DNA of 64,000 bases. It comes from Thermoplasmatota archaeon (GTDB taxonomy: Archaea; Thermoplasmatota; E2; JACPAO01; JAHFTW01). Of this stretch, positions 34,840 through 63,028 are shown one piece after another. Where the stretch lies: contig DATLBS010000009.1 in assembly GCA_035526765.1 (NCBI GenBank), positions 7,570-71,569 on the forward strand, in the 5' to 3' direction. Position 1 is the stretch's first letter. The number at the start of each line of letters is the position of its first letter. The position numbers were made by a program, and so were the translations under genes. The notes under the pieces were generated by a model. The model had not been told where the DNA came from. It worked only from the letters and a program-made list of their open reading frames with translations, and searched no databases.

Positions 34840-35316
34840 CCGCACGAACCACAGATTGCACAGATTTCACAGAACCTAGCGCGAGCTCGTTTGGTGCACA
34901 GCGGCCCGGGTTCGGTTCCAGACGGCCGAGCGCTTCGCGTTCGGTTCTGGATCATCGACTATCGTACACCCCCTGTGTGGGCGGCGGCGTGGAGCACCAG
35001 AGAAGTTGTTCTTGGTGCGCGGAGCGCACGGGTCTCGAAGCGTCCCCGAGCTTCGAGGGGCGCGCTTTGCGCGCCCCCGTTCCATCGCTTACGTCAACAG
35101 CAACCCCAAGCCGTTTGGTGGCGAAGGTCTTGTCCCTTGAGGGGCCGCAGGCCCCTCGTGTCGCGCGTGTGCACGGAGCGAGCCGTGCTGGCCGTGCCAC
35201 GCGCCGCCGCCGGAGGTGCCAGTGTCATGGATTTTCTCGCTTCGGGGCGACCGATGGGTCAATCCTTGACCGGCAAGCATCCAAGGTCATCTGTGCCGTA
35301 TGTGGTTCAGTTGGGG
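34840..35316. repeat. About 470-bp mosaic intergenic element with CACAGAT arms at both ends
   Basis: GAACCACAGATTGCACAGATTTCACAGA at left, ATCTGTGCCGTATGTGGTTCAG at right; internal blocks shared with 51681-51777, 57647-57785 and 12795-12862. Confidence 0.9.
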
Positions 35317-35381
35317 GAACCGAAACCCGCCGGACCACGCACTGCGTCCCGCTTATCTGGGGGACCCTTCTGCCGTCGCCC

Positions 35382-36638
35382 ATGACATGGCATGGCCGCT
35401 TCCTCGGGGCCGCCGAGAACATCGGTCGCCTCGGCTTCGTCCTTGACACGGAAGGCTCCCGCTTCCTCTTCGACTACGGCATGGAGCCGGACAAGCCGCC
35501 CCTCTACCCGCTGCCCTCGCCGGCCATCGACCGCGTGTTCCTCACGCATTCGCACCTCGACCACTCCGGCATGCTCCCCTGGCTGGCCGCGCGCTACGAC
35601 GCCCCCGTCCTGTGCACGCCCCCCACGGCGGAGGTGGCCACCCTCATGCACAAGGACTCCCTCAAGATCGCGCGCAGCGAAGGGTTCCCGGAGCCGTACG
35701 GCGACGCCGACATCGAGGCCACCATCGGCCTGTACGACCACCAGGACTTCACGCACCCCAAGCCGATGGGCAAGCACACCCTTCGCCTCCACTCCGCCGG
35801 CCACATCCCCGGCGCCAGCCAGATGGAGCTGCAGGGCCCCAACGGCACCCTCGTCTTCACCGGCGACCTCTACACCCGCCCGCAGCGCGTCGTCATGGCG
35901 GCCAAGCAGACCAAGGCGGACGTCCTCTTCATGGAGGCGACCTATGCCGGCAAGGAGCACCCGCCCCGGGACCAGGTGGAGCAGGACTTCCGTGACTACG
36001 CGCACGAGGTCGTCGCCCGCGGCGGCGTCCTGCTGGTGCCCGCCTTCGCGGTCGGCCGCAGCCAGGAGATCGCCATGGTCCTGGCCGAGGAGGGCCTCAA
36101 CGTGTGGCTGGACGGCATGGGCCGCACGGTGGCCAAGATCTTCTCGCAGCACCCGCAGTACCTCAACGACCGCTCCGCCTACGAGCGCGCCATGGGCCGC
36201 GTCAAGATGATCCACAACCACCGCGGCCGCAGCGTCGCCCTCAAGGAGGCCGACGTCATCATCACGACGGGCGGCATGATGGACGGCGGCCCCATCCTGT
36301 TCTACCTCGATGCCGTCCGCAACGACCCCCGCTGCGGCGTCGCCATCACCGGCTACCAGGCCGAAGGCACCAATGGTCGCCGCCTTCTGGAGAAGGGGGA
36401 ACTGGACTTCGACCCCCGCGCCCCCGGCACCAAGGTGCACCGCCTCAACTGCGAGGTGCGTTCCTTCGACTTCAGCGCCCACGCCGGCCACAAGGACCTC
36501 GTCGACTTCGCGCGCCGCACCGGCGCCAAGGACATCGTCCTCTTCCATGGGGACAAGCGCGAGGCCCTCGTGGGCGACCTCAGCGACTTCGCCACGGTGC
36601 ACCTGCCCATGGTGGACCAGCCGTTCGTGATCAAGTAG
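35382..36638 (+). CDS. MBL-fold beta-CASP ribonuclease (CPSF-like)
   Basis: THSHLDHSG, SAGHIPG, FTGD, MEATY, PAFAVGRSQE, ITGYQAEGTNGR, DFSAHA. Confidence 0.9.
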   Translation: MTWHGRFLGAAENIGRLGFVLDTEGSRFLFDYGMEPDKPPLYPLPSPAIDRVFLTHSHLDHSGMLPWLAARYDAPVLCTPPTAEVATLMHKDSLKIARSEGFPEPYGDADIEATIGLYDHQDFTHPKPMGKHTLRLHSAGHIPGASQMELQGPNGTLVFTGDLYTRPQRVVMAAKQTKADVLFMEATYAGKEHPPRDQVEQDFRDYAHEVVARGGVLLVPAFAVGRSQEIAMVLAEEGLNVWLDGMGRTVAKIFSQHPQYLNDRSAYERAMGRVKMIHNHRGRSVALKEADVIITTGGMMDGGPILFYLDAVRNDPRCGVAITGYQAEGTNGRRLLEKGELDFDPRAPGTKVHRLNCEVRSFDFSAHAGHKDLVDFARRTGAKDIVLFHGDKREALVGDLSDFATVHLPMVDQPFVIK

Positions 36639-36680
36639 GACACCGGACGGCTGGAGCGCACCGGAAGCCGTCCGGCCGCG

Positions 36681-37553
36681 TCAGAAACCGCTCGCCAGGT
36701 GCGCCGCCATGCGGGCCTTCACGCGCGTGAGGACGTCCTCGTTGTCGTAGGCCCGCTCCGCCTTCTTCGGCGCGCGGATCGCCTTGTCCAGCAGCGGCAG
36801 CGCGCGGGTCAGCTCGTCCACGATCGTGATGTCGGCCATGCGGGCCGTGCGGCTGAGCGGGTTGAGGTCGATCGTCACGACGGTCTTCCCCATCCTCTTG
36901 AGCGCCTGGCAGCGGTCGCCGTCCTCCAGGGGCACGATGACGAGGTCGGCGGTGCCGATGCCGGCCTTGCAGCACCTGCCGCGGTCCGAGTCGAGACCGG
37001 GGATCTGGAAGTCCGGCTTCGCTCCCAGGACGGTGCCCTTGATGGCGCCGGACTTCTCCATGGCACGCACCAGCTTCGCGACCCGCTCCTCGGAGCGGTG
37101 GAACAGGTTCACCTCCAGCGTGATGGACGGCCACGCCCGCGCGATGGAGTCGCACAGCCCCGCCGCCAGCGCCACGACGTTGCCGTTCAGGGACAGGACT
37201 GGCCGCTTCGCGGCACGGATGCGGCGCGCGGCCTCCTGGATCGCCTCCACGGCCTCGGGCGGCGTCTTCTCGCCCAGGAGATAATCGAACGCCTCGCCGC
37301 GACCATGCGCGATCAGGCCCGTGGGGTGCACCCAGCCGGCCGTGACGGCGTCCTTCATGCGCTCGCGCACGCGCAGGCTCGCGTAGCGCGGATGCGAGGC
37401 AGGGATGTTGCTGCCGGTGCCCGCGGCCGGGGGGGCCGATTCCACGGCCCCCTCCCTCGCGTCGCCATCGGCCGGGGCCTGCGCCGGCACCCCGGCTGGC
37501 TTGGAGGCGCGCCGCGGGGCGCGCGGGGCCTTGGCCTTGGTCGCGGGGGTCAT
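36681..37553 (-). CDS. 4-phosphopantoate--beta-alanine ligase (archaeal phosphopantothenate synthetase)
   Basis: SHPRYASL, GLIAHGRGEAFDYLLGEKT, EVNLFHRS, VPLEDGDR, IDLNPLSRTA; ATGA overlap with nadC. Confidence 0.92.
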   Translation of the reverse strand: MTPATKAKAPRAPRRASKPAGVPAQAPADGDAREGAVESAPPAAGTGSNIPASHPRYASLRVRERMKDAVTAGWVHPTGLIAHGRGEAFDYLLGEKTPPEAVEAIQEAARRIRAAKRPVLSLNGNVVALAAGLCDSIARAWPSITLEVNLFHRSEERVAKLVRAMEKSGAIKGTVLGAKPDFQIPGLDSDRGRCCKAGIGTADLVIVPLEDGDRCQALKRMGKTVVTIDLNPLSRTARMADITIVDELTRALPLLDKAIRAPKKAERAYDNEDVLTRVKARMAAHLASGF

Positions 37554-38377
37554 GCGTCCCATTCCATGGAGAGGTCCTTGGCGGGGGCCTTCTGCGTGAG
37601 CCATCCGAGGCTGACGCGGTCCGCCCACCCGTACTCGAGGAGGTTGTCCGGCCGGATGCCCCCCGAGGCTTCAACCTTGATATGGGGGAACTCGGCCCGC
37701 ACCGCCCGCGCCCAGGCTTCCCCGACGGCGCCAGCCTGGTTGTCGATCAGCAGCCAGTCGGCGCCGGCGGCGGCCGCGGCGCGGGCGTCCTCGTGGCTCT
37801 CCACCTCGCACGTCACGGTCCTGCCGCGGGCGGCGGCGACCACCCTGCGAACGGCGGCGTCGACGTCGCCGGCGCAGGCGGCGATGTGGTTGTCCTTCAC
37901 CATCGCCGCGTCCCAAAGGCCCATGCGGTGCGGGTCGCCGCCCCCCACGCGGACCGCCTCCTTCTCGAAGGCGCGGAAGCCAGGCGTCGTCTTGCGCGTG
38001 GCGGCCACCTGGGCGCGCGCGCCTGCCTTCGCCAGGGCATCGGCAAGCTCCCGCGTGAGGCTTGCGATGCCGGCCATGCGCGCCAGGAGGTTGAGGGCCA
38101 GCCGCTCGCCCGCAAGGAGGGCCTGGGCCGGGCCGCGGACCTCCAGCAGGGGGGCGCCGGGGGACGCCCAGGCTCCTTCGGTGGCGCAGGGGGTGGCCGT
38201 GGCGCCGAGCCGGCGGAACACCTCGGCGGCGTGGGCGGCACCGGCCACCAGCAGCCGCTCCCGCGCGACGATGCGGGCGCTCCCCTGCTCGCCTGCGGGC
38301 AGCGCCGCCGCGGTGAGGTCGCCGGGCCCGAGGTCCTCCTGGAGGTAGAGGCCGAGCCAGTCCGGCGTCGAGGGCAC
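37550..38377 (-). CDS. nadC: Nicotinate-nucleotide diphosphorylase (carboxylating)
   Basis: EDLGPGDLT, ERLALNLL, ATRKTTPG, HRMGLWDAAMVKDNH, EASGGI. Confidence 0.93.
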   Translation of the reverse strand: MPSTPDWLGLYLQEDLGPGDLTAAALPAGEQGSARIVARERLLVAGAAHAAEVFRRLGATATPCATEGAWASPGAPLLEVRGPAQALLAGERLALNLLARMAGIASLTRELADALAKAGARAQVAATRKTTPGFRAFEKEAVRVGGGDPHRMGLWDAAMVKDNHIAACAGDVDAAVRRVVAAARGRTVTCEVESHEDARAAAAAGADWLLIDNQAGAVGEAWARAVRAEFPHIKVEASGGIRPDNLLEYGWADRVSLGWLTQKAPAKDLSMEWDA

Positions 38378-38466
38378 GCCGGGGGCACAGTTGCTGGCTA
38401 TTTTGCGGCTTGCCCGTCAAACGGTCGCGCCACAGCGGTTTTGTGCAGGCAGGCCGAGTGCGGGGC

Positions 38467-39345
38467 GTGCGCTGGCTCCTTGCCGCCGGGACCCTCCTCC
38501 TCTGCCTCCCCATGGCACAGGCGGCCCTGGACCTGTCGGTGGACCTGTCCGCGGGGGAGCTCAAGCCCGGCACCGACCAGGCGACGGCGACGGTGCGCGT
38601 GGGACTGGACTGCCAGCAGGCGCTGCTGCGGGCCCGCGGGACCGCGGATTCGCTGCCCGTGCCCATCAAGACCTCGGGCTCCCCCGCCGTCGTGGTGAGC
38701 GGCAACCCGGTCGTGAACCTCCCCCTGGAGCCCTGCCGCAAAGGGGAGCAGGCCACCGAGGTGTCCGCGGGCTACGCCGTCGGCGTGCTGGCCGGCGCCC
38801 CCGCCAACCGCCCCCTGGGGTTCAACATCACGGCCGAGCTCCCCTCCGACGTCCCCACCCTCGCCACCGCCGAGAGCAAGACCGTGCCGCTCTCCGTGAA
38901 GGCGAAACCCATCGTGCTCGTGGTCGTCGTGCAGGTGCCGCAGGCCCTCCACCTCACCCAGTCCAACCAGACGTTCCTGCTGAGCCTGGCCAACAAGGGC
39001 AACACGCCCGTGCACGTCCGCGTGACCCCTGCCTTCTCCTCGCCCGACGTCCGGTCCTATCCCGCCGAGACGGACCTCGGCACCGAGGCCATCCCCGGGT
39101 CCGGGTCCCCCACCGCCGACCTCAGGTTCTCCCTTGAGGCCCCCACCATGGACAAGCTGCCCGAGTTCACCGGGCACCTCGACATCGTCGCGCACGCCAT
39201 CGAGGGCGGCGCCCCCGACACGCAGGTGCGCGCCGACCAGTTCTTCCGCAACGAGGTGGCACCGCCGAAGTCCTCGCCCGCCTCCCCGCTGGTGCTGGCC
39301 GGCCTTGCGCTGCTGGCCTGCGCCCGCGCGCGCCGCCGCCCTTAA
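38467..39345 (+). CDS. Secreted/surface protein with C-terminal KSSP-TM-RRR anchor
   Basis: Signal peptide ending AQA; beta-rich body; ends KSSPASPLVLAGLALLACARARRRP. Confidence 0.75.
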   Translation: MRWLLAAGTLLLCLPMAQAALDLSVDLSAGELKPGTDQATATVRVGLDCQQALLRARGTADSLPVPIKTSGSPAVVVSGNPVVNLPLEPCRKGEQATEVSAGYAVGVLAGAPANRPLGFNITAELPSDVPTLATAESKTVPLSVKAKPIVLVVVVQVPQALHLTQSNQTFLLSLANKGNTPVHVRVTPAFSSPDVRSYPAETDLGTEAIPGSGSPTADLRFSLEAPTMDKLPEFTGHLDIVAHAIEGGAPDTQVRADQFFRNEVAPPKSSPASPLVLAGLALLACARARRRP

Positions 39346-39370
39346 GGGCAAGGCACGGGTCGCCGGCGCC

Positions 39371-40144
39371 ATGGGACTCCAGGTCGGCATCGTGGGCTGC
39401 GGGGCCATCGGCTCCGAGGTCGCGAGGGCCGCAAGCGCGATGGGCGGCATCGATGCGGTGTGGCTCTTCGACATCGACCCCGACGCCACCCGCCTCCTCG
39501 CCCGGCTGCCCCGCACCAAGGTCGCGCCCACCGCGGCGCACCTCGTGGAGAAGGCGCACCTGGTCATCGAGTGCGCCAACAAGGGGGTCGTGCAGACCGT
39601 CGTGCGGGACGCCCTGGCCGCGGGCAAGAAGACGATGCTGATGACCATCGGGGCGCTGGCCGACGACGCGCTGCGCGCCGAACTCGTGGGCCTTGCGACG
39701 CAGACCGGCGGCAAGATCTACCTGCCCAGTGGCGCCGTCATGGGCGTGGACGGCGTGAAGGCGGCGGCGGAGGCGGACCTGAAGTCCGTGACGTTGGTCA
39801 CGACCAAGCCGCCGGCCGGGCTTGACAAGAAGACGGACCGCTGGACGCTGCTGTTCTCGGGTCCGGCCCGCGAGGCGGTGGAGAAGTTCCCCAAGAACGT
39901 CAACGTCGCCGCCACGCTCTCGCTGGCGGGATTGGGCTTCGACCAGACCCACGTCCAGGTCGCCATCGATCCTCTGGCCACGCGCAACTCGCACAAGGTC
40001 ATCATCGAGGGCACCTTCGGCCGGGCCCGCATCGAGGTGGAGAACCTGCCCAGCCCCGCCAATCCGGCCACCAGCTACCTTGCGTCGTTGTCGGCCATCG
40101 CCTTGCTGCGACGGATCGTGTCTCCCATCGAGATCGGAGCCTAG
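39371..40144 (+). CDS. nadX: L-aspartate dehydrogenase
   Basis: GIVGCGAIG, PSGAVMGVDGV, FSGPAREAVEKFPKNVNVAA, NSHKV, NPATSYLA. Confidence 0.92.
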   Translation: MGLQVGIVGCGAIGSEVARAASAMGGIDAVWLFDIDPDATRLLARLPRTKVAPTAAHLVEKAHLVIECANKGVVQTVVRDALAAGKKTMLMTIGALADDALRAELVGLATQTGGKIYLPSGAVMGVDGVKAAAEADLKSVTLVTTKPPAGLDKKTDRWTLLFSGPAREAVEKFPKNVNVAATLSLAGLGFDQTHVQVAIDPLATRNSHKVIIEGTFGRARIEVENLPSPANPATSYLASLSAIALLRRIVSPIEIGA

Positions 40145-40271
40145 CGCCCCGCTATGTGGGGCCGCAGGCCCCACGACGCAACGTGATCGACCTTCGTTTG
40201 AAGGTCGGGATCGTGTCTCCCATCGAGATCGGAGCCTCCGCCCCGCTATGTGGGGCCGCAGGCCCCACGAC
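40113..40271 (+). repeat. 65/64-bp direct repeat comprising the nadX 3' end plus a GCA-triloop hairpin
   Basis: Copy 1 at 40113-40177, copy 2 at 40208-40271; they differ only around the stop codon (CCTAGCG vs CCTCCG). Confidence 0.92.
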
Positions 40272-40335
40272 AACCCAGGCATTGTCAGGTCCCGTCCAGA
40301 AAGGCAATATATGAACGACCTTCGTGGGAATCGCG

Positions 40336-45424: not shown

Positions 45425-45700
45425 CCCCTGAACCACAGATGGCACCGATGGGGCGGATGCCGTCATTGGTTCCATCGCGTCGAGTGTCCTTGGGACGTGC
45501 GTTCTCCAAATCCACCCGGTCGTGCGTTCGACCCATCGGTCTGTCGCAAAACCGCAGCCAGTCAGACGCTGCCGTGGCGCCGACGCCGGAGTCCAGGACA
45601 ACGTGTTGGAAGGGCAAGCGATGGAATGGGGCGCGCGAAGCGCGCCCGCCACAACCCCCAATGCCCTAGGGCAATCTCCGCGTGTTCCGCGCATCCGCGC
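45425..45700 (+). repeat. Mosaic intergenic element between convergent genes
   Basis: GAACCACAGATGGCACCGAT; TCGACCCATCGGTCTGTCG 45528-45546; GTGGCGCCGACGCCGG 45574; GGGCGCGC-GAA-GCGCGCCC 45629-45647. Confidence 0.9.
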
Positions 45701-45772: not shown

Positions 45773-46897
45773 TCAGCTCGACGCCTTGCCCGGCCCGGCT
45801 TCGTCTTCCTTCGCCTCGCGTTGCAGCCGGGTCTCCGCCACGAAGGCCTTGGCCTCCGTGTGCCAAGCCTTCGCCTCCTCCATCGTGGGGGCGTGCTTGG
45901 GGTCGGCCTCCTCCAGGGCGCGCTGCACGAGCGCGGGGGGGGTCTGGGCAAGGTCGCGGATGCGGGCGACCCCGACCTCGGTGAGCTGCACGGCGGCCTC
46001 GGGCTTGAGGCTTGACAGCCGCAGCAGCCCCGCCACGTTGCGGCAGCGGCCCAGCTGCGAGGCCGGGATGTCGAGCTTCTGGGCCAGCTTCTTCAGGTTC
46101 ACGTGCATGAACTCGAAGCCTCCCTTGATCCCGAGGGCGGTGAGGCGCTTGCGCTGCGCCTCGTCGATCCACCCGAACGACTCGATGCTCACCCGGCTCG
46201 CCTCGCGCTTGCCCATGCGTGCCGCGACGATGCCCACGACCACGAGGAGGACGATGACCACCCAGGGCAGGAGGTCCCACAGGCCGCCGGTGGGCAGCGC
46301 GCTGGCCGTGACCTTGATGATGATGGCCCACGCCACGTTCACGATGGCGCCGACGATGCCCAGCACGACGAGGAGCCGGGGCAGCGGCACCCGCAGGACG
46401 ACCCCGAGCGCCCCCGCGCCCAGCACGCCGGCGCCCTGCACGGGGGCCACCGCGATGATTCCGAGGCCCAGCAGGCCCCAGCGGGCGAGGAAGTGGCGGC
46501 GGCGCCAAGCCATCTGCTCGGCCGCCATGAGGATGTTGCCGATGAAGCGGGCATCGCGAAGGCCCTCGACCGCGCGCCAGGCCAGGGGCACGATGAGGAA
46601 GAGGGTCGCCGCCATGTTGAGCACGCCCATGAGGATGACGAGCCAGAGGCTGAGGTCGACGCGCGGGCCGAAGGCGTAGAAGGCGGCGGCCTGCCCGCCC
46701 GCCACCGTGGTGATGCCGATGAACCACAGCAGGGAAAAGAAGGTGGCGCGGTCGAAGAGGAAGCTGACGACGACGATGGCCGCCATGGCCGCCCAGCACA
46801 CCGCGGAGACGAGGAGGGAGACCCGCAGGACCGGCGGGTACCTCTTGCGGTGGTCCCGCAGGTGGGCCTTGAGGGCTTCGCGGGCCGCCTCCGTCAT
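45773..46897 (-). CDS. Membrane protein (small multidrug export-like) fused to a DUF4332-like helix-hairpin-helix domain
   Basis: About 6 TM with APVQGAGVLGAGALG; C-terminal GWIDEAQRKRLTALGI...LLRLSSLKPEAAVQLTEVGVARIRDLA. Confidence 0.65.
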   Translation of the reverse strand: MTEAAREALKAHLRDHRKRYPPVLRVSLLVSAVCWAAMAAIVVVSFLFDRATFFSLLWFIGITTVAGGQAAAFYAFGPRVDLSLWLVILMGVLNMAATLFLIVPLAWRAVEGLRDARFIGNILMAAEQMAWRRRHFLARWGLLGLGIIAVAPVQGAGVLGAGALGVVLRVPLPRLLVVLGIVGAIVNVAWAIIIKVTASALPTGGLWDLLPWVVIVLLVVVGIVAARMGKREASRVSIESFGWIDEAQRKRLTALGIKGGFEFMHVNLKKLAQKLDIPASQLGRCRNVAGLLRLSSLKPEAAVQLTEVGVARIRDLAQTPPALVQRALEEADPKHAPTMEEAKAWHTEAKAFVAETRLQREAKEDEAGPGKASS

Positions 46898-47096
46898 GGC
46901 CCGCCCTCCGTCCGGCCGCGCAGGGGAGGGCATCGGTCCCCGCAGGCACGGCCACGCCTTAAGGCGCTGCACTCCCCGAACCTGGCTGGGGTGCGCGCGG
47001 AGCCTCGACGCGAAACGAGGGCCCCCGCAGGCCCGCATCGACCCACAAACCCGTCACGTGAAGCCTCGGGAAGGGAACTTCCTTGGAGGCAGGGGC

Positions 47097-48581: not shown

Positions 48582-48806
48582 CGCAGAGAGCGCAGAGAGG
48601 GGGAGTCTTGGCTGGCCCCTGGTTTTCGGCGCCCACCGAACACAGATGGCACCGATGAGGCGGATGCTCCCACTCGCCGGAATTGACCCATCGCTCTGTT
48701 GCAAGGGGGCGCGCGAGGCGCGCCCGCGCAAACCTGTCACGGAACCCACGGAACCTTGGAAACCGAGACTCAAGCTTGGCTTTGCGGTTTCCGTGGCTTC
48801 CGTGGC
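48582..48806 (+). repeat. Mosaic intergenic element between convergent genes
   Basis: CGCAGAGAG x2, GAACACAGATGGCACCGAT, TTGACCCATCG, GGGCGCGC-GAG-GCGCGCCC 48707-48725, CACGGAACCCACGGAA...TTCCGTGGCTTCCGTGG. Confidence 0.88.
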
Positions 48807-51440: not shown

Positions 51441-51790
51441 CCACTGAACCACAGATGCCACAGATGGACGCAGATACAGGTCCCTTCAGGCTCAACGTTG
51501 GACCCAGAATCTCAACTTCGAGTCTCCAAAGCCACCTGCCTCTGATTTGACGCATCGGTCGCCGTGAAGACCCGAGGCTCAGGTCCTAGGGGTGTGTGTG
51601 GGCGGCGGCGGGTTGTTCCTGCAAGCGATGGCATGGGGCGCGCGAAGCGCGCCCGCCGAAACCAATCCAACGCTGCGGAGCCGTGCGCCCCGCGCACCAA
51701 GAACAATTTTTTCAACCTCCGCGCCCCCGCCGCCGTCCAAGGGGTGTTAGGCTCAACATGATCCAGAACCGAACGCGGAGGGGCCGACCA
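51441..51790 (+). repeat. Mosaic intergenic element between convergent genes
   Basis: GAACCACAGATGCCACAGAT; TTGACGCATCGGTCG; GGGCGCGC-GAA-GCGCGCCC 51636-51654; ATGATCCAGAACCGAACGCG 51758-51777 is the exact reverse complement of 34936-34955. Confidence 0.9.
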
Positions 51791-51837: not shown

Positions 51838-52281
51838 TCAACCCAGACTCTTCGTCATCAGGCGGCGGTTGTGGACCCCGAACCCGAGCCGCTTGTACAA
51901 CTCCAAAGCACGCGGGTTGCCGATGTCGACCTCTAGGTGCATGGCCCTTGCGCCTCCTCTCCCCGCCTCCTTCGCCATCGCCTCAAGCAAGGCGGTCCCG
52001 ATGCCCTGGCCGCGGTGGCTTGCGACGACGTACAGTTCATCCGCGAAGGCGTCGATTCCGCCGAACTCGATGCTGTAGCCGAACACGTAGACACCGTACC
52101 CGATCACTTGATCCTCCTCTTCTGCAAGCACGACCCCCCCACGTCCCGGCTCGGCCAGCAACCTCGCCACCGCCGACCGGCGCCCCTCCGGCGTCGTCGC
52201 CAACTGCTCATGCAGGTGAAAGTCTGCAATGTGGGGCAGGGCCCGGTCCAGGTCGGCTGAAGCCGCCGTGCGCAGCCTCAT
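51838..52281 (-). CDS. GNAT family N-acetyltransferase
   Basis: DELYVVASHRGQGIGTALL, LEVDIGNPRALELYKRLGF. Confidence 0.88.
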   Translation of the reverse strand: MRLRTAASADLDRALPHIADFHLHEQLATTPEGRRSAVARLLAEPGRGGVVLAEEEDQVIGYGVYVFGYSIEFGGIDAFADELYVVASHRGQGIGTALLEAMAKEAGRGGARAMHLEVDIGNPRALELYKRLGFGVHNRRLMTKSLG

Positions 52282-52661
52282 TCTCCCCTCGCGTCCCATT
52301 GGTGCGCCTCGCGGAACCAGGCCATGGTCCCGGCATCCAGGTCGGCGGCCGTGCGCAGGTGGATGCGGATGGAATACCGGTTCCCCGCCTCATCGTGCCG
52401 CACGCGATCGGAAGGGACGGCGCAGGGCAACAGGAAACGCACCACGATGCTCCCGTCAAGGTTGGCGGCGTTGCACCACAGGAACCGGGTTCGGCCCATG
52501 AGCGCGACGCGGCTCTTCGTGGCGGTGACCGTGAATGCGCGTACCGGTCGCATGGAGTCCACGAACTTCGCCAAGAGTGCGGCGGCCTGGGGGCGGTCCT
52601 TGAAGAAAAGGGCCGCCGCGACCTCATCGTCTGGGGAGACGTAGGGAACCGGCTGAGGCAC
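52278..52661 (-). CDS. DUF5655-like domain protein
   Basis: TVTATKSRVAL..RF, HLRTAADLDAGTMAWFREAH pattern; 4-nt overlap with the GNAT gene. Confidence 0.65.
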   Translation of the reverse strand: MPQPVPYVSPDDEVAAALFFKDRPQAAALLAKFVDSMRPVRAFTVTATKSRVALMGRTRFLWCNAANLDGSIVVRFLLPCAVPSDRVRHDEAGNRYSIRIHLRTAADLDAGTMAWFREAHQWDARGE

Positions 52662-52721
52662 GACCAGGGGACTTCATCCCCGTTGAAAGAGGGAACCGAT
52701 GGAGGGCTGAGCCGGGTTGCT

Positions 52722-53126
52722 TCAGGGCCCGTAGGCGCGCACTGGGATGCCAGCCTGCTGGATGCGGGCAAGCCCTTGGTCGGCGGTCACGAGGACATAG
52801 CGTCCGGCCGCGGCGGTCCCCGCGATCAAGGCGTCAAGTTGGCCAAGGGGGATGCCCTTGCGCATCATCTGCACCTGGATCTCTGCGGCGTGGCTGGCGG
52901 CGTGCTCGCTGAGTTCCGCCAGGGGCATGCTGGCTGCGACGGCCTCGAACTCCGCTTCCTCGAGCCGGTCGCCTCGCCACAGGAAGCCGAAACGGAGCTC
53001 GAAGAGCACCAGGGGAGACAAATGGGCGACTGCGCCTGCGCCGGCAAGTTGCTCCCACAGGTCGACGGCCTGCTTGCGGCCGCGCAAGAGGTCCACGAGG
53101 AACGAGGTGTCCGGGAGGACGTTCAC
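52722..53126 (-). CDS. vapC: PIN-domain toxin
   Basis: LPDTSFLVDLL, FELRFG, LDALIAGTA, LVTAD; 4-nt overlap with the antitoxin. Confidence 0.9.
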   Translation of the reverse strand: MNVLPDTSFLVDLLRGRKQAVDLWEQLAGAGAVAHLSPLVLFELRFGFLWRGDRLEEAEFEAVAASMPLAELSEHAASHAAEIQVQMMRKGIPLGQLDALIAGTAAAGRYVLVTADQGLARIQQAGIPVRAYGP

Positions 53127-53368
53127 AGGAGGCCTAGACGGCGGTACCGGTCCGTGGCGGCTTCGCGTTCGAGGGCCCGTTGCTTGTCCAGGAGGTCGCG
53201 CATGGCCTTGCCCTTGGCGGGACTGACCAGCCCGCTGAGACGGCGCATCGGGTCTTCCTGGGGGCGCAGGAGCCGTTGCACGACTTCGCTGAAACTCTCG
53301 TCCCCGCGTTTGGCCTGCAGCAGGATCGCGTAGGCGCCCTCCTCCAGGCTGATCGTCTTCGAGGCCAT
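53123..53368 (-). CDS. vapB: Archaeal VapB-type antitoxin
   Basis: MASKTISLEEGAYAILLQAKRGDESFSEVVQRLL N-terminus, directly upstream of the PIN gene. Confidence 0.88.
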   Translation of the reverse strand: MASKTISLEEGAYAILLQAKRGDESFSEVVQRLLRPQEDPMRRLSGLVSPAKGKAMRDLLDKQRALEREAATDRYRRLGLL

Positions 53369-53752: not shown

Positions 53753-56659
<2,907 letters not shown>

Positions 56660-56700
56660 AGGAAAACGGCATGGCGTAAGGGCCCGGGGGTCGGCACGAA

Positions 56701-56867: not shown

Positions 56868-56985
56868 CTCCTCGCGAAGCGACGGACATGCCGGTGCGTG
56901 GCAGGCCGAGCGGCACAGCGTCTCCTGCCGCTGCCCAAAAACGTCCAACGCAGGTTTATGCTCCGCTTTCTGGATGGTCCCCTGG

Positions 56986-57429
56986 ATGCGGTCGGTCACC
57001 GGAGGGTTGTTCCTCGTGAGCGTCAAGATCCGCGACGAGCCCGGCGCCCTCGCCCGCGTCGCCCGGCTGCTGGCGGCGCACAACATCAACCTGCGCGGCC
57101 TCATGGTGGACGCCGCCGGCATCAACCTCCTGACGCAGTCCCTCCCCACGGCCCGGGCGGCGCTCGACGACAGCGACCTGCGCTACGAGACGCAGGAGGT
57201 CCACGAGGTGCTCCTGGAGGACCACCCCGGCACGCTGGCGGACCTGTGCGAGCGCCTGGCCAACGCCGGCATCAACATCGTGACCGCCTTCGGCGTCAGC
57301 ACCGGCAGCGCGGGCCGCATCTACATCAACGTGAGCGACCTCCCGCGGGCGGCGCCCATCATCGACACCGTGAGCCAGGGTCCAGCCCTCGTGCATTACC
57401 GGTTGGGCCGCATCGGCCCGGCGCCCTGA
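56986..57429 (+). CDS. Tandem ACT domain protein
   Basis: DEPGALARVARLLAAHNINL and DHPGTLADLCERLANAGINI; TTTATG about 26 nt upstream. Confidence 0.85.
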   Translation: MRSVTGGLFLVSVKIRDEPGALARVARLLAAHNINLRGLMVDAAGINLLTQSLPTARAALDDSDLRYETQEVHEVLLEDHPGTLADLCERLANAGINIVTAFGVSTGSAGRIYINVSDLPRAAPIIDTVSQGPALVHYRLGRIGPAP

Positions 57430-57559
57430 ACCTCAGCCTCGCCTTTTCCAGCTGTTCGCCCGCGTGTTTCGTCTCAATCGGCCTGCATCGCATGGTTCCC
57501 TTTGTCGAGCACTCCCGGGGCGTTCTCAGGCCGTCATGCGCTCCGCGTTCGGTTCCGAC

Positions 57560-58135
57560 GGCTCGCTCCCGACCTTCAAACGACGGTCGACCACGTTGCG
57601 TCGTGCGGTCTACGACCGCACATGGCATTCCCCTCTGACTTACCGGACACGCGCGACATGAGGGGCCTGCGGCCCTTCAAGGGACAAGACAAACACTGGG
57701 TTCTGGACCACCGACGTTCCATCACTCCTGTGTGGGGGCGGCGTCCAGCACCAGGAAAATGCTTGTGGTGAGCAAGCGCACGGCCCCAATTGCACGTGGA
57801 TAGGACGGAAAGTGCGGAGGCACTCCCCCGTTTTTTGCCGCGGAACCCACGGAAGCCCACGAAGTTAGACGTGAGTTCGATTCCCGTGAGTTCCGTGCCT
57901 TCCGTGGCTGGTTTCGGCGGGCGCGCTTCGCGCGCCCCATGCCATCGCTCGCAACATCGTCTCGTCGTGCCGGAGCACGGCGTCGTCGTCACAGGCGTGT
58001 TGACCGGTTGCGGGTTTACGACAGACCGATGGGTCGATTCGCGTCGAGGGATTTTGGAGGCCCGGCATAGGCGCTGACAGCAGGTGGGCGCCTCCATCTT
58101 CCCCAATCTGTGCCATCTGTAGTTCAGTGGGGGCC
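57560..58135 (-). repeat. About 580-bp mosaic intergenic element between convergent genes
   Basis: On the minus strand: GAACTACAGATGGCACAGAT, TCGACCCATCGGTCTGTCG (58019-58037), GAA hairpin (57919-57937), CACGGAA arms, GCA and GTA hairpins (57660-57678, 57603-57621). Confidence 0.92.
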
Positions 58136-58157
58136 GAAGCCCTGCCAAGAACTCGGG

Positions 58158-59102
58158 TCACTTGTTGCGGTACGGCGCCCAGGAATCCACGAGGGTCTCC
58201 GGCGTGAACGGCAAGGACACGATGCCCGTCCTCGCGTAGCGGTACAGCGCCGTCTGGTAGAGACTGCCCACCATCGACGCGAAGAGGCCCATGGCAAGGG
58301 AGGCGACGACGATGACGCAGCCTGCCGTCAGGACGAGGGGGAACATCGCCTTCGCCGAGACGATGCCTGCCGCCATCAGCAGGGGCAGGCCCATCATGAA
58401 CAACAGGAACGGCAGGAAGACAAGGAGCATCGGGACCATGACCGCGAGCCCGATCGTCACGATGCCCGCCGTCGCCTTGCCCCACTGGTCACGGGCCAAC
58501 GCGGTGGACGTGCGCAAGGCGCCGATGGCGCTGCGCTCGCCCTCGACGACGAGGACCGGGATGACGAAGTAGGCAGCCACGGCCCACGCGAGCGCGCCCA
58601 AGGTCTGGAAGGCCTGACCAATGTACGGGATGATGCGCAGCCGGTCCAGCAGTTGGCCGACCACCGCCAGCAGGCCGGACACGAGCATGGCGAGGAGGTT
58701 GTAGCGCGCGATGGGGCCAAGCTGTGCCACGGCCCGGCGCCAGGCGTCCTTCTTCCGGCCGGGACGGCCCTCCAGGCGCTCATGGGCGGCGTGGCAGAGC
58801 GCTGCGTTGAACAGGCTCGTCAGCACCATGAGCGGATACATCAGGGGCATCGCGAGGAAGAACAGGAAGGGACGCGCGCCCCGCGGGACGTGGAGCAGGT
58901 TCAGGAAAGAGGGCCCCAGGGCAAGAACGCCCCAGACCACGACGCCCACGAGCACGGCCGCGAACGCCAGCATGCTGGCAAGGCCCAGCAGGGGGAACAC
59001 CCAGAGGTCGCGCTCGGTGCGCAGCATGCGCCAGGACTGCCCGAAGATCGCGCGGCTCGTCGCGTAGCGCGCCCTGAACGGCACACGCACCTTGCCAGCC
59101 AT
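58158..59102 (-). CDS. Multi-TM membrane protein (DUF6159-like)
   Basis: SWRMLRTERDLWVFPLL, YFVIPVLVVEG..AIGALRTS, YQTALYRYA. Confidence 0.72.
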   Translation of the reverse strand: MAGKVRVPFRARYATSRAIFGQSWRMLRTERDLWVFPLLGLASMLAFAAVLVGVVVWGVLALGPSFLNLLHVPRGARPFLFFLAMPLMYPLMVLTSLFNAALCHAAHERLEGRPGRKKDAWRRAVAQLGPIARYNLLAMLVSGLLAVVGQLLDRLRIIPYIGQAFQTLGALAWAVAAYFVIPVLVVEGERSAIGALRTSTALARDQWGKATAGIVTIGLAVMVPMLLVFLPFLLFMMGLPLLMAAGIVSAKAMFPLVLTAGCVIVVASLAMGLFASMVGSLYQTALYRYARTGIVSLPFTPETLVDSWAPYRNK

Positions 59103-59329
59103 GCGGGGAGAACCCCTCGCCCTGGCTTGAATTTTCCTGGCCCTTGGCCGGTGCCCCGCGCATGCGGCGGACTGCGTCGCGCCCCAGGGGCGGCGCAGCG
59201 AATGGGTTAAGAGAGCCCCCCGAGTCGGCGCGCGTGCGCCCCTTTGGGGCGCGCGGGGTTCTGCCCTGGGATTCCCTGGCTCCGGCGTCCGCCGGAGCCG
59301 CATCGGGTGTCCTGAGGACACCCTCGCCC

Positions 59330-59402
59330 GGTCCTGTAGTGTAGCGGCCAATCATGGTGCCCTCTCACGGCACCGACCCGGGTTCAAATCCCGGCGGGAC
59401 CA
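59330..59402 (+). tRNA. tRNA-Glu (anticodon CTC), CCA not encoded
   Basis: Acceptor GGTCCTG/CGGGACC, anticodon stem GTGCC/GGCAC with loop CTCTCAC, T-loop GGTTCAAATCC. Confidence 0.96.
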
Positions 59403-59493
59403 TTCGCCTGGCTCCGCGCGGCCTCGCGCCCCGGCATGACGCCTGCCCATGGCCTTGCTGCGTGGCAACCCTTAACCTGGGGCCGCCGCTGGA

Positions 59494-59748
59494 ATGGGCG
59501 TGGTGGCGCCCCTTGGTCGCGATGCCCGCAGGTTGGACCTGCAGGCGCGCTTCAACCAGATGAGCGTGCGGCGGGAGGAGCTGGAGCGGCGCTACCCCGG
59601 CAGCTTCGGCATCGGGGGGATGCCGCCCAACCCCTTGGGCAAGCGCGCCCCCGACGGCCTCGTGGAGGAATGGAGGATCCTGTGCGATGCCCTGGCGAAG
59701 GTGGAGGCCGACCTCGCCACCCTGGTCCCCGAGCCCCCGAAGGCTTGA
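59494..59748 (+). CDS. Small hypothetical helical protein
   Basis: GCAACCCTTAA at 59465-59475 upstream; start 59494 or 59500. Confidence 0.55.
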   Translation: MGVVAPLGRDARRLDLQARFNQMSVRREELERRYPGSFGIGGMPPNPLGKRAPDGLVEEWRILCDALAKVEADLATLVPEPPKA

Positions 59749-59773
59749 ACCCGCGGCTTGGGCTCGCGGCGGC

Positions 59774-60586
59774 GTGGGCGAGCCTGCACGCATCGTGAGC
59801 CTCGTGCCCAGCCACACCGAGTCGCTGCACGCCCTCGGCCTCGCGGCCCGCGTCGTCGGCCGCACCCGCTTCTGCATCCACCCGGAACCCTGGGTCGGCA
59901 CGGTGCCCGCCGTCGGCGGCACGAAGGACGCCAGGCTGGACCGCATCCTCGCGCTGCGCCCCGACCTCGTGGTGGCGGACAAGGACGAGAACCCGAAGGC
60001 GCTGGTGGAGGCCCTGCAGGCCGCAGGGGTGGAGGTGCTTTGGTCGGAGATCGACGCCGTCGAGGACGCCGCACGCTTCCTGGAGGCGCTGGGCCGCCGC
60101 TGCGGCGCCGACCAGGCCGCCACGGTCCTGGCCAGGGACCTCCGCGCCGCGATGGCCGAGGTCGCGGTCGCGGGCGGAGGTGGGCCCGGCGTGCCCGTGT
60201 TCTGCCCCATCTGGCATGCGCCCTGGATGACGTTCGACCGCACCGCGTACCCGAGCGCCATGCTGGCTGCCGTCGGCCTACGAAACGTCTTCGCGGACCA
60301 CGCGGGACCCAAGTACTTCCAGGTCGCGGACGGCGAGGTGGCCGCAGCGGGTGCCCAGTGGTCGCTGCTGCCCTCAGAGCCGTTCCCCTTCCACCGCCAC
60401 CCCGTCGACACCTCCGGCCTGGGGCCGGCGGGGCATCCCGAGCGGGTGCGCGTCATCGACGGCGAGGCGCTCACCTGGTTCGGGGCGCGCACCGCGGCGG
60501 GGCTGCGCGAGCTGGCCGGTGTGGCGCGCTCGCTGGTCAGTCCTGGCGGCGGCGCTGCAGCAGGGCCGCGCAGCCCAGCAGGCTGA
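59774..60586 (+). CDS. Helical-backbone metal receptor (BtuF/TroA-like substrate-binding protein)
   Basis: RIVSLVPSHTESL, VGRTRFCIHP, VGGTKD..LDRILALRPDLVV..KDEN, IDGEALTWFG. Confidence 0.85.
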   Translation: MGEPARIVSLVPSHTESLHALGLAARVVGRTRFCIHPEPWVGTVPAVGGTKDARLDRILALRPDLVVADKDENPKALVEALQAAGVEVLWSEIDAVEDAARFLEALGRRCGADQAATVLARDLRAAMAEVAVAGGGGPGVPVFCPIWHAPWMTFDRTAYPSAMLAAVGLRNVFADHAGPKYFQVADGEVAAAGAQWSLLPSEPFPFHRHPVDTSGLGPAGHPERVRVIDGEALTWFGARTAAGLRELAGVARSLVSPGGGAAAGPRSPAG

Positions 60587-62582
60587 CCAGGGCCAGCAAG
60601 CCTGCGCCGGGGCTCGACCGCGAGGCGCCTTCCACGGCCTTGGCGCGCGCCGCCGCGTCGTAGGGCCCGAGGCCACCGTGCAGGTCCTCGAAGGCGGCGC
60701 CGCTCCCGCTGCCGCCGGCGCCGCCGGCGGAGCGCGTGGCCGACGCGGTGCCGTAGGCGGCGGAGCCGTCGGCGCTGGCGGCCATGGGCGCTTCCTTGGC
60801 GCCCGCGGAGGCGTACATGCAGCATCCGCCGTTGGATTCCTGGCCCGGCGTCAACTGGATGTCGAAGGGGGTCTCGCCGGACTTCAGGGTCAGCATGCCG
60901 ACCCAGTGGAGGTGGCCCTCGGCGTAGGCGTAGACGTCCATGTGGCCGCTGCGGACCTTGATGCTGTAGGAGCCGTCCTTGTCGGTGGTGGCGGAGCCGT
61001 ACCCGTAGCCGTCCTGGCTGCTGAAGCTCACCTGGGCGTTGGGGATCGCCTTGCCGGTCGAGGCATCGACGACGTAGCCGGAGACGACGGCGTCGGGGGC
61101 AGGCCGCTGCTCGAGGCGGACCGTCACCTTGGTGGTGGCGTCCGCGGGCAGGTCGAGGACCTGGTTCCAGGCGTAGTGCTCGGGCCGGCAGGGCCTGTAG
61201 TTGCCATCGGTCTGGGGGCAGTCGCGGTAGGCGTCGTGGCCGACCGAGAGGACCGTGTAGCCCGGGGTGACGTCGCCGCTGAAGGTGCCGTCGCTGTTGA
61301 CGCGGATCGCGCAGCCGTTGCTGTAGCCGCCCGGGTAGGGGTAGGAGACATCGCTGCTGGTGGGGCTCTCCGGGTCGCTGGGCGGCGTCTCCTGCGCGGG
61401 CTTGGGCGGGGAGTCGTCGGCCTGGGAGGCGTCCTGGCTGCACTCGTAGAGGCCGTAGCGGGGCGACTGCACGCCGATGTAGAGGGCCGAGAGGCCCTTG
61501 CCGGTGGAGGCGTCCACGACGCGGCCCTCGATGTGGGCCGTCTTGGGGGGGAACTTCTGCATCTCGATGTCGTGCGCCACGGATGCGCCCGTCACCTCGA
61601 CGTTCGCGTAGTGGTTCGCGTAGCCTTCGTGGTACACGTTCATGCTGACGCTCACGCCGCTTGCGACATGGATGCTGTAGCGGCCCTCGCGGTCGGTGAC
61701 CGTGGAGTTGTAGCCGTTGCCGTAGTAGGGGCGCGCGACCGCCATGCCGGAGCTGGGGCTGGACGCGGAGGCGGGGGAGGCGGTGCCGGAGGAGGTGGAG
61801 GTGTCGTACGCGTGGCAGCAGCCGCCGTAGCCGCCGTAGCTGTACACGTTGATGGTGAAGCCGGGCAGGGGCGTCCCGTCCTGGTCGCGGACCACGCCGT
61901 GCAGGGTGGCGTCCTGCCTGGGGGCTTCGGGGACGCGGAGGGCGACCCCCTGGGTGCCGTCCACGAACTGGCTGACCGAGGCCAGCTGCATGCCGTCGGA
62001 GTCGACCGAGAAGGTGCGCTCGCCGGACTGGGTCGTGACGGTGAAGGCGCCGTCGGCGTCCGTGTACGTGTCGGTCATGCCGAAGTCGTTGGCGCAGCAC
62101 ACCGTGACGTGGGCCTTCGGCAGGCCCTTGCCGTCCTGGTCGGTGACGGTGCCCTTGACGTCGATCGACCTGGGGACCAATCCGACGCGGCGTTCGGTGG
62201 CACCCTGGATGTTGAGCTGGAACTCCATGGTCTCGTAGCCCACGCGCTTGAGCTCTAGGGTGTACGTGCCTGCCGTGAGGTCGGAGCCGGAGAACGTGTA
62301 GGTGCCGTTCTGGTTGGTGGTGCCGGACTTGTCGACCGCGAGGGCGCCCGTGCCCCCGACGCCGGCCTTCGTGAGGTGGAGCTGGACGTTGCCCAGGGCG
62401 GGGCCGCAGCCGGCAGCGTCGCCGGGCTCGGGCGCCTGCACGTAGTTGACGTTGCGGTCGCGCGAGCAGACGTCGACGTCGAGGGAGTTGGACACCTGCG
62501 CATCGATGGGGTGCGGCACGAGGGCGATGGCGCCCAGCAGGAAGACGGCGGTGAGGACGAGGGCGGACGGCTTGCGGTCCAT
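60537..62582 (-). CDS. Carboxypeptidase-regulatory-like repeat surface protein with RSSP-TM-RRR anchor
   Basis: Signal peptide; repeated G.V.D..TGK.IP.A.V / TTD.DG.Y modules; ends RSSPGAGLLALVSLLGCAALLQRRRQD. Confidence 0.82.
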   Translation of the reverse strand: MDRKPSALVLTAVFLLGAIALVPHPIDAQVSNSLDVDVCSRDRNVNYVQAPEPGDAAGCGPALGNVQLHLTKAGVGGTGALAVDKSGTTNQNGTYTFSGSDLTAGTYTLELKRVGYETMEFQLNIQGATERRVGLVPRSIDVKGTVTDQDGKGLPKAHVTVCCANDFGMTDTYTDADGAFTVTTQSGERTFSVDSDGMQLASVSQFVDGTQGVALRVPEAPRQDATLHGVVRDQDGTPLPGFTINVYSYGGYGGCCHAYDTSTSSGTASPASASSPSSGMAVARPYYGNGYNSTVTDREGRYSIHVASGVSVSMNVYHEGYANHYANVEVTGASVAHDIEMQKFPPKTAHIEGRVVDASTGKGLSALYIGVQSPRYGLYECSQDASQADDSPPKPAQETPPSDPESPTSSDVSYPYPGGYSNGCAIRVNSDGTFSGDVTPGYTVLSVGHDAYRDCPQTDGNYRPCRPEHYAWNQVLDLPADATTKVTVRLEQRPAPDAVVSGYVVDASTGKAIPNAQVSFSSQDGYGYGSATTDKDGSYSIKVRSGHMDVYAYAEGHLHWVGMLTLKSGETPFDIQLTPGQESNGGCCMYASAGAKEAPMAASADGSAAYGTASATRSAGGAGGSGSGAAFEDLHGGLGPYDAAARAKAVEGASRSSPGAGLLALVSLLGCAALLQRRRQD

Positions 62583-62682
62583 GGAGTGGACATGTCCCTT
62601 CGGACTATATCAACCCCGGTCGGCAGGCGGGGGTTTCCCCAACCATGGGGGGAGCCGCGTTGGGCCCTTCGGCGCACCCGCC

Positions 62683-63028
62683 GGAACCACAGGATGCCAC
62701 CGATGGAGAGGATTCCCTGGCTTTCCACAGATGGAGAGGTGCCCCCCGGCCTTCCGCCCACGCCTCCGGTAATTTTCCTCTAACAATCTCCAAAGGCGCC
62801 GGGTCCAAGCCACCTTCCACGATCGACCCATCGGCCTGTCGTGAACCCGCGACCCGTCCAACCTGCTGTGGCGCCGACGCCGGCGTCCAGATACAACGGG
62901 TTGGGACAGTTGGCGATGGCGTGTGCGCGCGAAGCGCGCCCGCCGAACCTGGCCAGGAACGCGCGGAGACCGCGGAAATCCTGGCAGTTGCCATGCGCTG
63001 CGGGGGGGTGTGTCCGCGTGTTCCGCGA
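62683..63028 (+). repeat. Mosaic intergenic element between divergent genes
   Basis: GAACCACAGGATGCCACCGAT; TCGACCCATCGGCCTGTCG 62823-62841; GTGGCGCCGACGCCGG 62868; GCGCGC-GAA-GCGCGC 62925-62939; CGCGGA arms. Confidence 0.88.

Follow-up and report, generated by a model that had tools for sequence, protein, structure and literature searches.

Repetitive extragenic palindromic (REP) sequences, bacterial interspersed mosaic elements (BIMEs), and REPINs are bacterial repeats mobilized by RAYT (HUH-Y1) transposases (PMC3733652, PMC2817692, PMC3116915), and like the hairpins described here they are extragenic palindromes 20-40 nt long, each built of a GC-rich stem (6-9 bp) and a loop of 2-3 nt. A survey of REP sequences and HUH transposases reports families from bacterial phyla only (PMC3733652). 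The tips of the hairpins recall the DNA mini-hairpin d(GCGAAGC), which melts at 76.5°C; r(GCGAAAGC), the RNA form of the related tetraloop hairpin d(GCGAAAGC), melts at 39°C (PMC13037366). A C:G closing pair is the favored or optimal context for the DNA mini-hairpin (PMC13037366, PMC3201870), and GNA triloops closed by this pair have no special stability in RNA (PMC13037366). In the GC-rich archaeon Haloferax volcanii, 503 transcript ends have a hairpin before them, and in vivo one hairpin stopped 59% of transcripts without a U-tract (PMC7237163). Here, we describe hairpin families in a 64-kb stretch of ~70% G+C (the window; contig DATLBS010000009.1) from an uncultured soil archaeon of the Thermoplasmatota.

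We lean toward the view that these hairpins are the cores of small, noncoding, strand-asymmetric DNA repeats that form a species-specific REP/BIME-like system. The units consist of a 5' tail of 10-12 nt, an 8-bp G/C stem, a loop of 3-4 nt, and 1-3 further nucleotides, and they are scattered through intergenic DNA. They have sharp borders and high within-genome identity, and some lie beside duplicated target sequence. We name the hairpin units A (GAA loop), I (GTTT loop), and B and C (GCA or GTA loops). There are at least three layers, i.e., the A unit within a composite with 9-nt arrays, the I unit, and an older GGCC-GCA-GGCC family common to related genomes.

Hairpin A is a discrete repeat unit within an ordered composite

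A preliminary description of the window had reported one hairpin six times, including one 6-bp version, and pattern counts against shuffled sequences bear this out. The pattern GGGCGCGCNNNGCGCGCCC, i.e., GGGCGCGC-NNN-GCGCGCCC, matches at five sites (35058, 45629, 48707, 51636, and 57919) and in none of 100 dinucleotide shuffles, and the 6-bp core GCGCGC-NNN-GCGCGC yields a sixth site at 62925 (0.11 expected). The hairpin previously placed at 35057 is real, but at this coordinate lies the outermost of nine stem pairs (35057-35077), and the 8-bp site is at 35058. A covariance model built from the six sites with 15-nt flanks scored the six copies at 52-70 bits in the forward and 12-13 bits in the reverse direction, while the best other match in the window or in a relative's locus had 13 bits. 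Because the forward and reverse scores differ to this extent, the orientation of A is well defined. Based on the flanks, A is on the plus strand at 45629, 48707, 51636, and 62923 and on the minus strand at 35058 and 57919. With this orientation, the loops on the element strand are GAA in four copies, GAG at 48707, and AAA at 35058, exactly as first described. The six copies are as follows.

45617-45650, plus strand: A unit with tail AGCGATGGAATG, GGGCGCGC-GAA-GCGCGCCC (45629-45647), and GCC; 63 bits; the majority variant in the source metagenome.
51624-51657, plus strand: A unit with GAA loop, hairpin at 51636-51654; 69 bits; a T6 tract lies 53 nt downstream at 51707-51712.
57916-57949, minus strand: A unit with GAA loop, hairpin at 57919-57937; 70 bits; followed in element orientation by a CACGGAA 9-nt foldback array (57906-57839).
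35055-35089, minus strand: A unit with the 9-bp stem and AAA loop; 57 bits; antisense to both plus-strand neighbors, gdh and a beta-CASP gene.
48707-48725, plus strand: short version of A with GAG loop; 52 bits; 143 nt past the cdc6 stop; without the GCGATGG tail and directly adjoining the GACCCATCG box.
62913-62944, plus strand: A unit with stem GTGCGCGC carrying an uncompensated G>T, perfect core at 62925-62939, GAA loop; 53 bits; in the divergent spacer upstream of the RNase HII gene.

The window DNA was found in one soil-metagenome run, X1, and in no listed RNA run; X1 is the run that we used as the source run for depth; copy equivalents are the summed depth of X1 contigs relative to that of single-copy flanks, and ~48% of the run was covered. 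On two A copies, the summed depth climbs stepwise to 290-380 over ~35 nt and drops on both sides, while the single-copy flanks are at 9.6-14. For the copy at 45617-45650, the steps lie at 45615-45618 and 45647-45653, and there are no variant letters. Because the depth rises and falls sharply around ~35 nt and the single-copy flanks are low, A is a discrete repeat unit of ~35 nt, and its number in the source soil metagenome is put at about 20-40 copy equivalents, a depth-based estimate to which other organisms may have contributed. The stem and loop have zero alternative letters in X1 at a reporting threshold of 1%, and the sole variant is A/C in the tail. Aligned, the unit is strand asymmetric, with the 5' tail AGCGATGG(A/C)ATG, the stem-loop, and then GCC(GAAACC).

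All six A copies share an ordered composite with constant order and orientation: a 9-nt periodic CACAGATGG array, (TCTCCAAA), a GACCCATCGG box, and A. The box preceding A reads (T/C)GACCCATCGGTC and is absent from the window wherever A is absent. On the 3' side, A is followed by either a CACGGAA 9-nt foldback or a GTGCGC-NCC-GCGCAC block with GATCCAGAACCGAACGCG. The block map and alignments give the following example of the upstream blocks.

45430-45541, plus strand: CACAGATGG array (45430-45450), TCTCCAAA (45503-45510), and CGACCCATCGGTC box (45529-45541).

Three copies of A lie in clearly convergent spacers, one in the convergent ribA/GNAT spacer, one (35058) in a tandem spacer with A antisense to both genes, and one (62923) in a divergent spacer. 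A is not tied to transcript ends, as it occurs in convergent, tandem, and divergent spacers and in either orientation. The copies are solitary, at least 2.9 kb apart, and no inverted pairs were seen. Spaced singly at kilobase distances, A does not form the regular array with unique spacers of a clustered regularly interspaced short palindromic repeat (CRISPR) locus, and A units do not have the terminal inverted repeats with a short target-site duplication of miniature inverted-repeat transposable elements (MITEs).

The composite at 34.8-35.3 kb is the only one bounded by inverted CACAGAT arrays. CACAGAT 9-nt arrays form two inverted pairs in the window. The pair at 34846-34866 (plus) and 35288-35308 (minus), 440 nt apart, encloses this A- and C-bearing composite and resembles terminal inverted repeats; the pair at 25979-25999 (plus) and 26048-26068 (minus) is a close foldback after the topoisomerase VI A gene.

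Other readings of A were considered and rejected. A coding reading (ATG-GGG-CGC-GCG-AAG...) fails, as the ATG and the frame are lost in the copies at 35058 and 62923; for box C/D small RNA, K-turn, and promoter readings, the boxes are unmatched and there is no Rfam match. A scan of the window with Rfam 15 gave only a tRNA-Glu at threshold and no sub-threshold match of interest.

B and C hairpins and the high-copy I unit

The second hairpin of the preliminary description and its two compensatory swaps were confirmed, and a further copy was found. The relevant features are as follows.

40156-40174, plus strand: B hairpin GTGGGGCC-GCA-GGCCCCAC, 11 nt past the nadX/AspDH stop on the sense strand; second copy at 40250-40268.
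57603-57621, minus strand: B variant GTGCGGTC-GTA-GACCGCAC, with two compensated pairs relative to the copy at 40156.
35139-35157, plus strand: C-module hairpin GAGGGGCC-GCA-GGCCCCTC, with flanks CTTGTCCCTT ... GTGTCGCGCG.
40178-40208, plus strand: I unit of 31 nt, GCAACGTGAT followed by the hairpin CGACCTTC-GTTT-GAAGGTCG and G; adjoins the B hairpin.

The four stem substitutions between the B hairpins at 40156 and 57603 are exactly two compensated pairs (P ~0.0017 given four random stem substitutions), and the loop changes from GCA to GTA. The flanks of these two hairpins, described as homologous, are indeed similar, but the similar flank is the I unit, an independent 31-nt high-copy repeat. 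The supposed third swap at 35139 does not hold: this hairpin has other flanks and belongs to another module, C, and the comparison is therefore not like for like. Other copies of the C module lie at 57660-57678 (minus strand, one A.C mismatch) and 12807-12825 (diverged, 7-nt loop).

The second copy of I in the window is at 57569-57599 on the minus strand, and the two copies differ by one uncompensated stem change. In X1, the summed depth of I is 2000-2800 (~2700 at ≥95% identity) versus 10-15 for single-copy DNA, with borders sharp to 1-3 nt. At roughly 150-250 copy equivalents (depth based), I far outnumbers the other two units measured. A tandem I-CCGTCAT-I joint with a 7-nt spacer is present in the X1 metagenome.

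GCA hairpins follow stop codons and lie between duplicated gene ends

Of nine genomes sampled, four have a hairpin of the GGCC-GCA-GGCC type at a distance of 7-22 nt past a stop codon, and each time it lies on the sense strand. The window case is at nadX, and the three others are in loci of relatives (L144, L145, and L139); each hairpin is part of a module of 60-100 nt that also contains a second hairpin with a GGA or GTTT loop. The final 26-36 nt of the coding sequence recur as a direct repeat on the far side of each of the four modules, and this downstream copy is decaying.

Window, nadX/AspDH: GCA hairpin 11 nt past the stop, sense; module span 40114-40237.
L144, AspDH: CTGGGGGCC-GCA-GGCCCCCAG 22 nt past the stop, sense; orthologous site with a compensated 1-bp insertion; module span ~20995-21185 (minus strand).
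L145, tRNA-guanine transglycosylase (TGT): GGGCGGCC-GCA-GGCCGCCC 14 nt past the stop, sense, plus AGGGGC-GGA-GCCCCT; module span 9384-9610.
L139, cdc6: GGGGGGCC-GCA-GGCCTTGCC 7 nt past the stop, sense, with two G.T pairs, plus GGGGC-GGA-GCCCC; module span 11270-11385.
40114-40237, plus strand: nadX direct repeat of the last ~30 nt (40114-40142 and 40209-40237), with the stop TAG reading TCC in copy 2; brackets the B hairpin and the I unit.

Such duplications occur at 4 of ~160 gene ends versus 8 of 3600 random junctions (0.2%), and all 8 of the latter lie inside known tandem repeats. The gene-end duplications look like insertion with a long target duplication. At the nadX end, the GCA hairpins of L144 and the window differ by compensated changes only. 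The L145 hairpin, likewise 3' of TGT, is set apart from A by just the middle base of the loop and two compensated pairs, a likeness in sequence that may or may not reflect homology.

Pairing is kept in GCA and B hairpins, and the tips are of the C(GNA)G type

Compensatory changes had been taken as a sign of selection on structure. This reading applies to the GCA and B hairpins: given the compensated changes in B and the compensated-only differences at the orthologous nadX end, base pairing in these hairpins is clearly maintained. It does not extend to A, in which the stems are invariant and there is no covariation. Because the A stems do not vary, conservation of the A loop is inseparable from recent common descent.

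The center of A is exactly GCGAAGC, while that of B and C is C-GCA-G or C-GTA-G. In a table of 12 hairpins (flank defined and from relatives), which is descriptive only since several rows were picked as perfect hairpins, the closing pair is C:G in all 12, the loop starts with G in 11 and ends with A in 11, and six of eight stem pairs are changed on both sides. Throughout the window, there are 11 perfect triloop hairpins with a stem of at least 8 bp (2.8 expected), and 7 with a GNA/TNC loop (0.3 expected). GNA triloops are in excess in the window, and the hairpins conform overall to the DNA mini-hairpin motif d(C-GNA-G), but two of the six A loops (GAG at 48707 and AAA at 35058) and the GTTT loop of I are exceptions.

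A composites are recent additions

Proteins encoded in the window (Pfam) include Orc1/Cdc6, an archaeosine TGT with a PUA domain, topoisomerase VI, UvrA, and other housekeeping proteins. The nearest Cdc6 proteins are from metagenome-assembled genomes (MAGs) of Thermoplasmata/Thermoplasmatota, with 77-93% identity among the top 36 matches. Look-ups for exact copies of three window proteins gave no record. A is absent from positions 1-35 kb of the window, and no A unit was detected in five loci of relatives (L139, L140, L144, L145, and L146; ~105 kb), also with filters off, nor any I unit in ~150 kb of loci from eight relatives. Where the flanking proteins of a relative are 86-93% identical, the orthologous spacer is free of the units. 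L140, in which Cdc6 is 92% identical, is syntenic, with TGT directly followed by cdc6, ribA directly followed by uvrA, and short spacers. In the window, the same spacers contain A composites and accessory genes, i.e., a DUF4332 protein at 45773-47038 (TGT/cdc6) and GNAT/unknown/VapC(PIN)/VapB at 51838-53368 (ribA/uvrA). Because the syntenic L140 spacers are without A composites and accessory genes, the A-bearing composites are recent, lineage-specific additions.

We note that L140 has repeats of its own. At 11312-11457, after cdc6, there are three CAGACGGGCCGATGCC(C/G)GCAGGCG arrays with a GGCGACC-TT-GC-GAA-GC-GGTCGCC hairpin between arrays; at 17104-17399, after an ACT-domain gene, a 130-nt unit containing 9-bp hairpins is repeated in tandem (2.3 copies).

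With the A-based patterns used, A was not found in 185,579 GTDB species-representative genomes, JGI metagenome contigs, IMG/VR, or PLSDB. The genome scan, for which the pattern was A plus the left tail, returned unrelated bacteria only, including an independent repeat family in Oscillospiraceae; the JGI scan with the A pattern returned chance coding matches only, searches of viral contigs with the A tail or the I unit yielded chance matches or nothing, and BLAST against plasmids gave none. The Oscillospiraceae MAGs (L090, L091, L092, L094, and L105) contain the unrelated repeat GATGGTGTA-GGGGCGCGC-TGT-GCGCGCCC followed by a second hairpin, GCGGGCGGCC-AAA-GGCCGCC, with four copies in one MAG. 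Separately, the viral contig L068 (IMGVR_UViG_3300030333_004257; 46% G+C) has a GC-rich hairpin repeat, with five GGGCGCGC-(ACT/AGT/TGT)-GCGCGCCC copies within 6 kb (692-6520).

DNA repeats, RNA signals, or by-products

The preliminary description had proposed single-stranded DNA (ssDNA) rather than RNA as the functional substrate. The C(GNA)G tips and the gain and loss of units favor DNA, as do the other features of DNA repeats, i.e., copy number, borders, adjacent duplications, and for A the occurrence in any spacer type and orientation, and the conservation of the identical 19-mer in viral contigs related to ssDNA phages (described below), whereas the placement of the GCA hairpins on the sense strand after stop codons favors RNA; action as ssDNA and action as RNA are both compatible with the data at hand. 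An accompanying argument, that hairpins without a U-tract are not RNA terminators, is weak in an archaeon, given the Haloferax hairpin ends without a U-tract (PMC7237163) and the T6 tracts found beyond two A copies. The combination of a GC hairpin and an immediate T run that marks an intrinsic terminator is not seen at A, which is directly followed by GCCGAAACC; only two A copies have a T6 tract beyond them, at +53 and +99 nt. Because these tracts lie 53 and 99 nt beyond, the two A copies would sit in 3' untranslated regions (UTRs). T runs of at least 5 nt number seven in the 64 kb, and A runs of at least 5 nt number three. Three T6 runs lie in A-bearing spacers (45746, 51707, and 57831), consistent with archaeal T-tract terminators. 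The folding z-scores of 48-nt A units (-0.8 to -3.1) are unremarkable, and folding energy cannot separate RNA from DNA, because shuffled sequence of 70% G+C folds well and an 8-bp G/C stem is very stable either way.

One alternative to a DNA repeat system is that the hairpins are RNA elements, namely hairpins at transcript 3' ends that stop transcription or block decay in the 3'-to-5' direction in an archaeon of 70% G+C with scarce T-tracts, their spread being secondary. Several points speak for it: the GCA hairpins lie 7-22 nt past the stop on the sense strand at nadX in the window, TGT in L145, AspDH in L144, and cdc6 in L139, three of them among tandem genes, which leaves no doubt about orientation; in L139, two stem pairs are G.T when read on the sense strand and would be A.C on the opposite strand; four of the six A composites start 20-70 nt past the stop of a same-sense gene; T runs of this length are as rare as noted; and H. 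volcanii provides a precedent (503 hairpin-preceded ends and 59% termination in vivo; PMC7237163). Nevertheless, we regard this explanation as rather unlikely, since, of the A copies, the one at 35058 is antisense to both neighbors and the one at 62923 occupies a divergent promoter spacer, the T6 tracts at 53 and 99 nt imply that A itself is not the end signal there, C:G-closed GNA triloops have no special stability as RNA (PMC13037366), units are missing at the same gene ends in relatives, and no Rfam family matches.

That the hairpins are mutational by-products formed without selection is improbable in our view. Perfect stems with minimal 3-nt loops would arise during replication or repair, where stable C(GNA)G tips most easily nucleate fold-back priming or quasi-palindrome template switching, and the "compensatory" changes would be intrastrand templated corrections. 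Tandem duplications do surround several hairpins, the tip is the most stable DNA hairpin tip (PMC13037366), and compensated changes coexist with uncompensated ones in neighboring hairpins (I at 57570-57589 and A at 62923). However, such a process leaves unexplained both the dozens to hundreds of near-identical dispersed copies with asymmetric tails and sharp borders and the constant block order around A. Least credible, and in our estimate very improbable, are double-stranded DNA sites, whether operators or nucleoid-protein sites for a protein dimer or boxes near cdc6 that are linked to an origin. The two 8-bp halves of A form a perfect inverted repeat around a 3-bp spacer, one copy adjoins cdc6 with 9-nt arrays flanking it, and array-like repeats also lie 3' of cdc6 in L140, but compensated changes in both half-sites within one genome are unexpected for a protein operator, the conserved tail and loop are asymmetric, and the copies are spread over unrelated housekeeping genes.

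Several observations weigh against the REP/BIME-like reading. The stems of A are identical, and their sole change (62923) is uncompensated, so that A offers no covariation. The GCA hairpins, on the sense strand after the stop in four of four cases, one with G.T pairs, fit an RNA role at least equally well. The loop of the most abundant unit, I, is GTTT, and GNA therefore does not hold as a rule across this genome. A units have no flanking target-site duplication and no terminal inverted repeats, the 64-kb window encodes no transposase, HUH protein, or integrase as judged by Pfam, and the metagenome contigs contain no empty-site (alternative) allele at the nadX locus. The copy numbers, being depth based, are also open to contributions from other organisms, as noted above.

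Discussion

If the hairpins are the cores of REP/BIME-like DNA repeats, the units may multiply at the DNA level via a folded single strand that is recognized by a structure-specific enzyme, as RAYT or the TnpA of IS200/IS605 recognize the hairpins of REP sequences and insertion sequence (IS) ends. We offer this route tentatively, as a plausible mechanism that falls somewhat short of being probable. The C:G-closed G-N-A tip, the most stable DNA hairpin tip, would help the fold to form; units would persist mainly behind genes because insertions there are harmless; and transcribed units would add a 3'-UTR hairpin that may help to define or protect transcript ends. A bolder and, in our judgment, unlikely possibility is that an undescribed class of tiny (31-100 nt) hairpin modules of soil Thermoplasmatota inserts at gene 3' ends with long target duplications (26-64 bp) and is read as folded ssDNA with C(GNA)G tips; this would imply an archaeal mobilizing enzyme that measures staggered cuts with a ruler, or hairpin-primed repair, and such modules would seed the A and I families.

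The window shows a layered, species-specific system of hairpin repeats, with units of 31-35 nt, in a soil archaeon that has not been cultured. Movement of the units as folded single strands would point to an unknown archaeal mobilization enzyme; if the units act as RNA, they would constitute a hairpin-type 3'-end signal in a GC-rich archaeon in which T-tract terminators are rare. The relatives provide two handles, i.e., hairpins that keep their pairing and the C(GNA)G tip while the stems change, and modules bracketed by duplicated gene ends.

Several described systems share features with these units. Natural d(GCGAAGC)/d(GCGNAGC) sites (the origins of G4, St-1, and alpha3, ssiA, and the N4 promoters; PMC13037366) have the same type of tip sequence, but they are single functional sites in ssDNA genomes rather than dispersed chromosomal repeats, and with the 8-bp G/C stem present here the loop adds little stability. 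The 19-mer GGGCGCGC-GAA/GCA-GCGCGCCC also occurs, identical, in at least 15 homologous viral contigs related to Inoviridae of Ralstonia (ssDNA phages), with only GAA (10) and GCA (5) as loops. Because the flanks share no sequence, this is resemblance, not homology.

Viral loci with the 19-mer, contigs of 6-16 kb: L002, L009, L011, L012, L015, L018, L024, L030, L032, L033, L074, L080, L084, L087, and L088; the 19-mer is followed by (c)tagaYttRtat...aacactt, and one contig matches Ralstonia solanacearum Inoviridae.

The hairpin ends of H. volcanii (PMC7237163) are alike in that hairpins lie shortly 3' of coding regions without adjacent U-tracts in a GC-rich archaeon; they differ in that they are not described as dispersed repeat families. 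The att-type gene-end duplications left by integrative elements resemble the direct repeats of 26-36 nt of a gene 3' end that bracket the hairpin modules, but the insert here is only 60-100 nt, is without an integrase, and targets protein-coding ends (nadX, TGT, and cdc6) rather than tRNA genes. IS200/IS605 elements and the short nonautonomous archaeal derivatives known as palindrome-associated transposable elements (PATEs) of Haloquadratum (PMC3119063; HUH survey, PMC6006769) have subterminal hairpins that are read as ssDNA with guide nucleotides. PATEs are longer and have two different ends, IS200/IS605 hairpins are imperfect where the stems here are perfect, no TnpA/TnpB is encoded nearby, and the window has no Rfam match to IS605-type RNA. 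The units are not MITEs, bacterial-type terminators, CRISPR repeats, or members of any Rfam family.

We know of no equivalent REP-type system described in the Thermoplasmatota. No RAYT (Y1 HUH transposase) flanked by repeats is found among the window proteins (Pfam). Two features of REP systems are lacking: in the window, A does not form the head-to-head or tail-to-tail doublets, or alternating clusters, of REPINs, and neither strand of A, which is flanked by ...GGAATG and GCC..., has the GTAG/CGTC tag of REP sequences; at the B hairpin, CGTC abuts the stem on the opposite strand (GACG after ...CAC), which may be chance. The units differ further in their archaeal (Thermoplasmatota) host and in a tail that in A is 10-12 nt rather than 4 nt. 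Nevertheless, A (~35 nt, six copies in the window) and I (31 nt) are short (20-40 bp), multicopy, extragenic palindromes. They share with REP/BIME sequences a short unpaired one-sided tail, tens to hundreds of copies, and species-specific families with several per genome, as well as a mosaic arrangement with other motifs, as in BIMEs, and a location mostly downstream of genes. This comparison suggests that the system is new as a REP-like variant in an archaeon.

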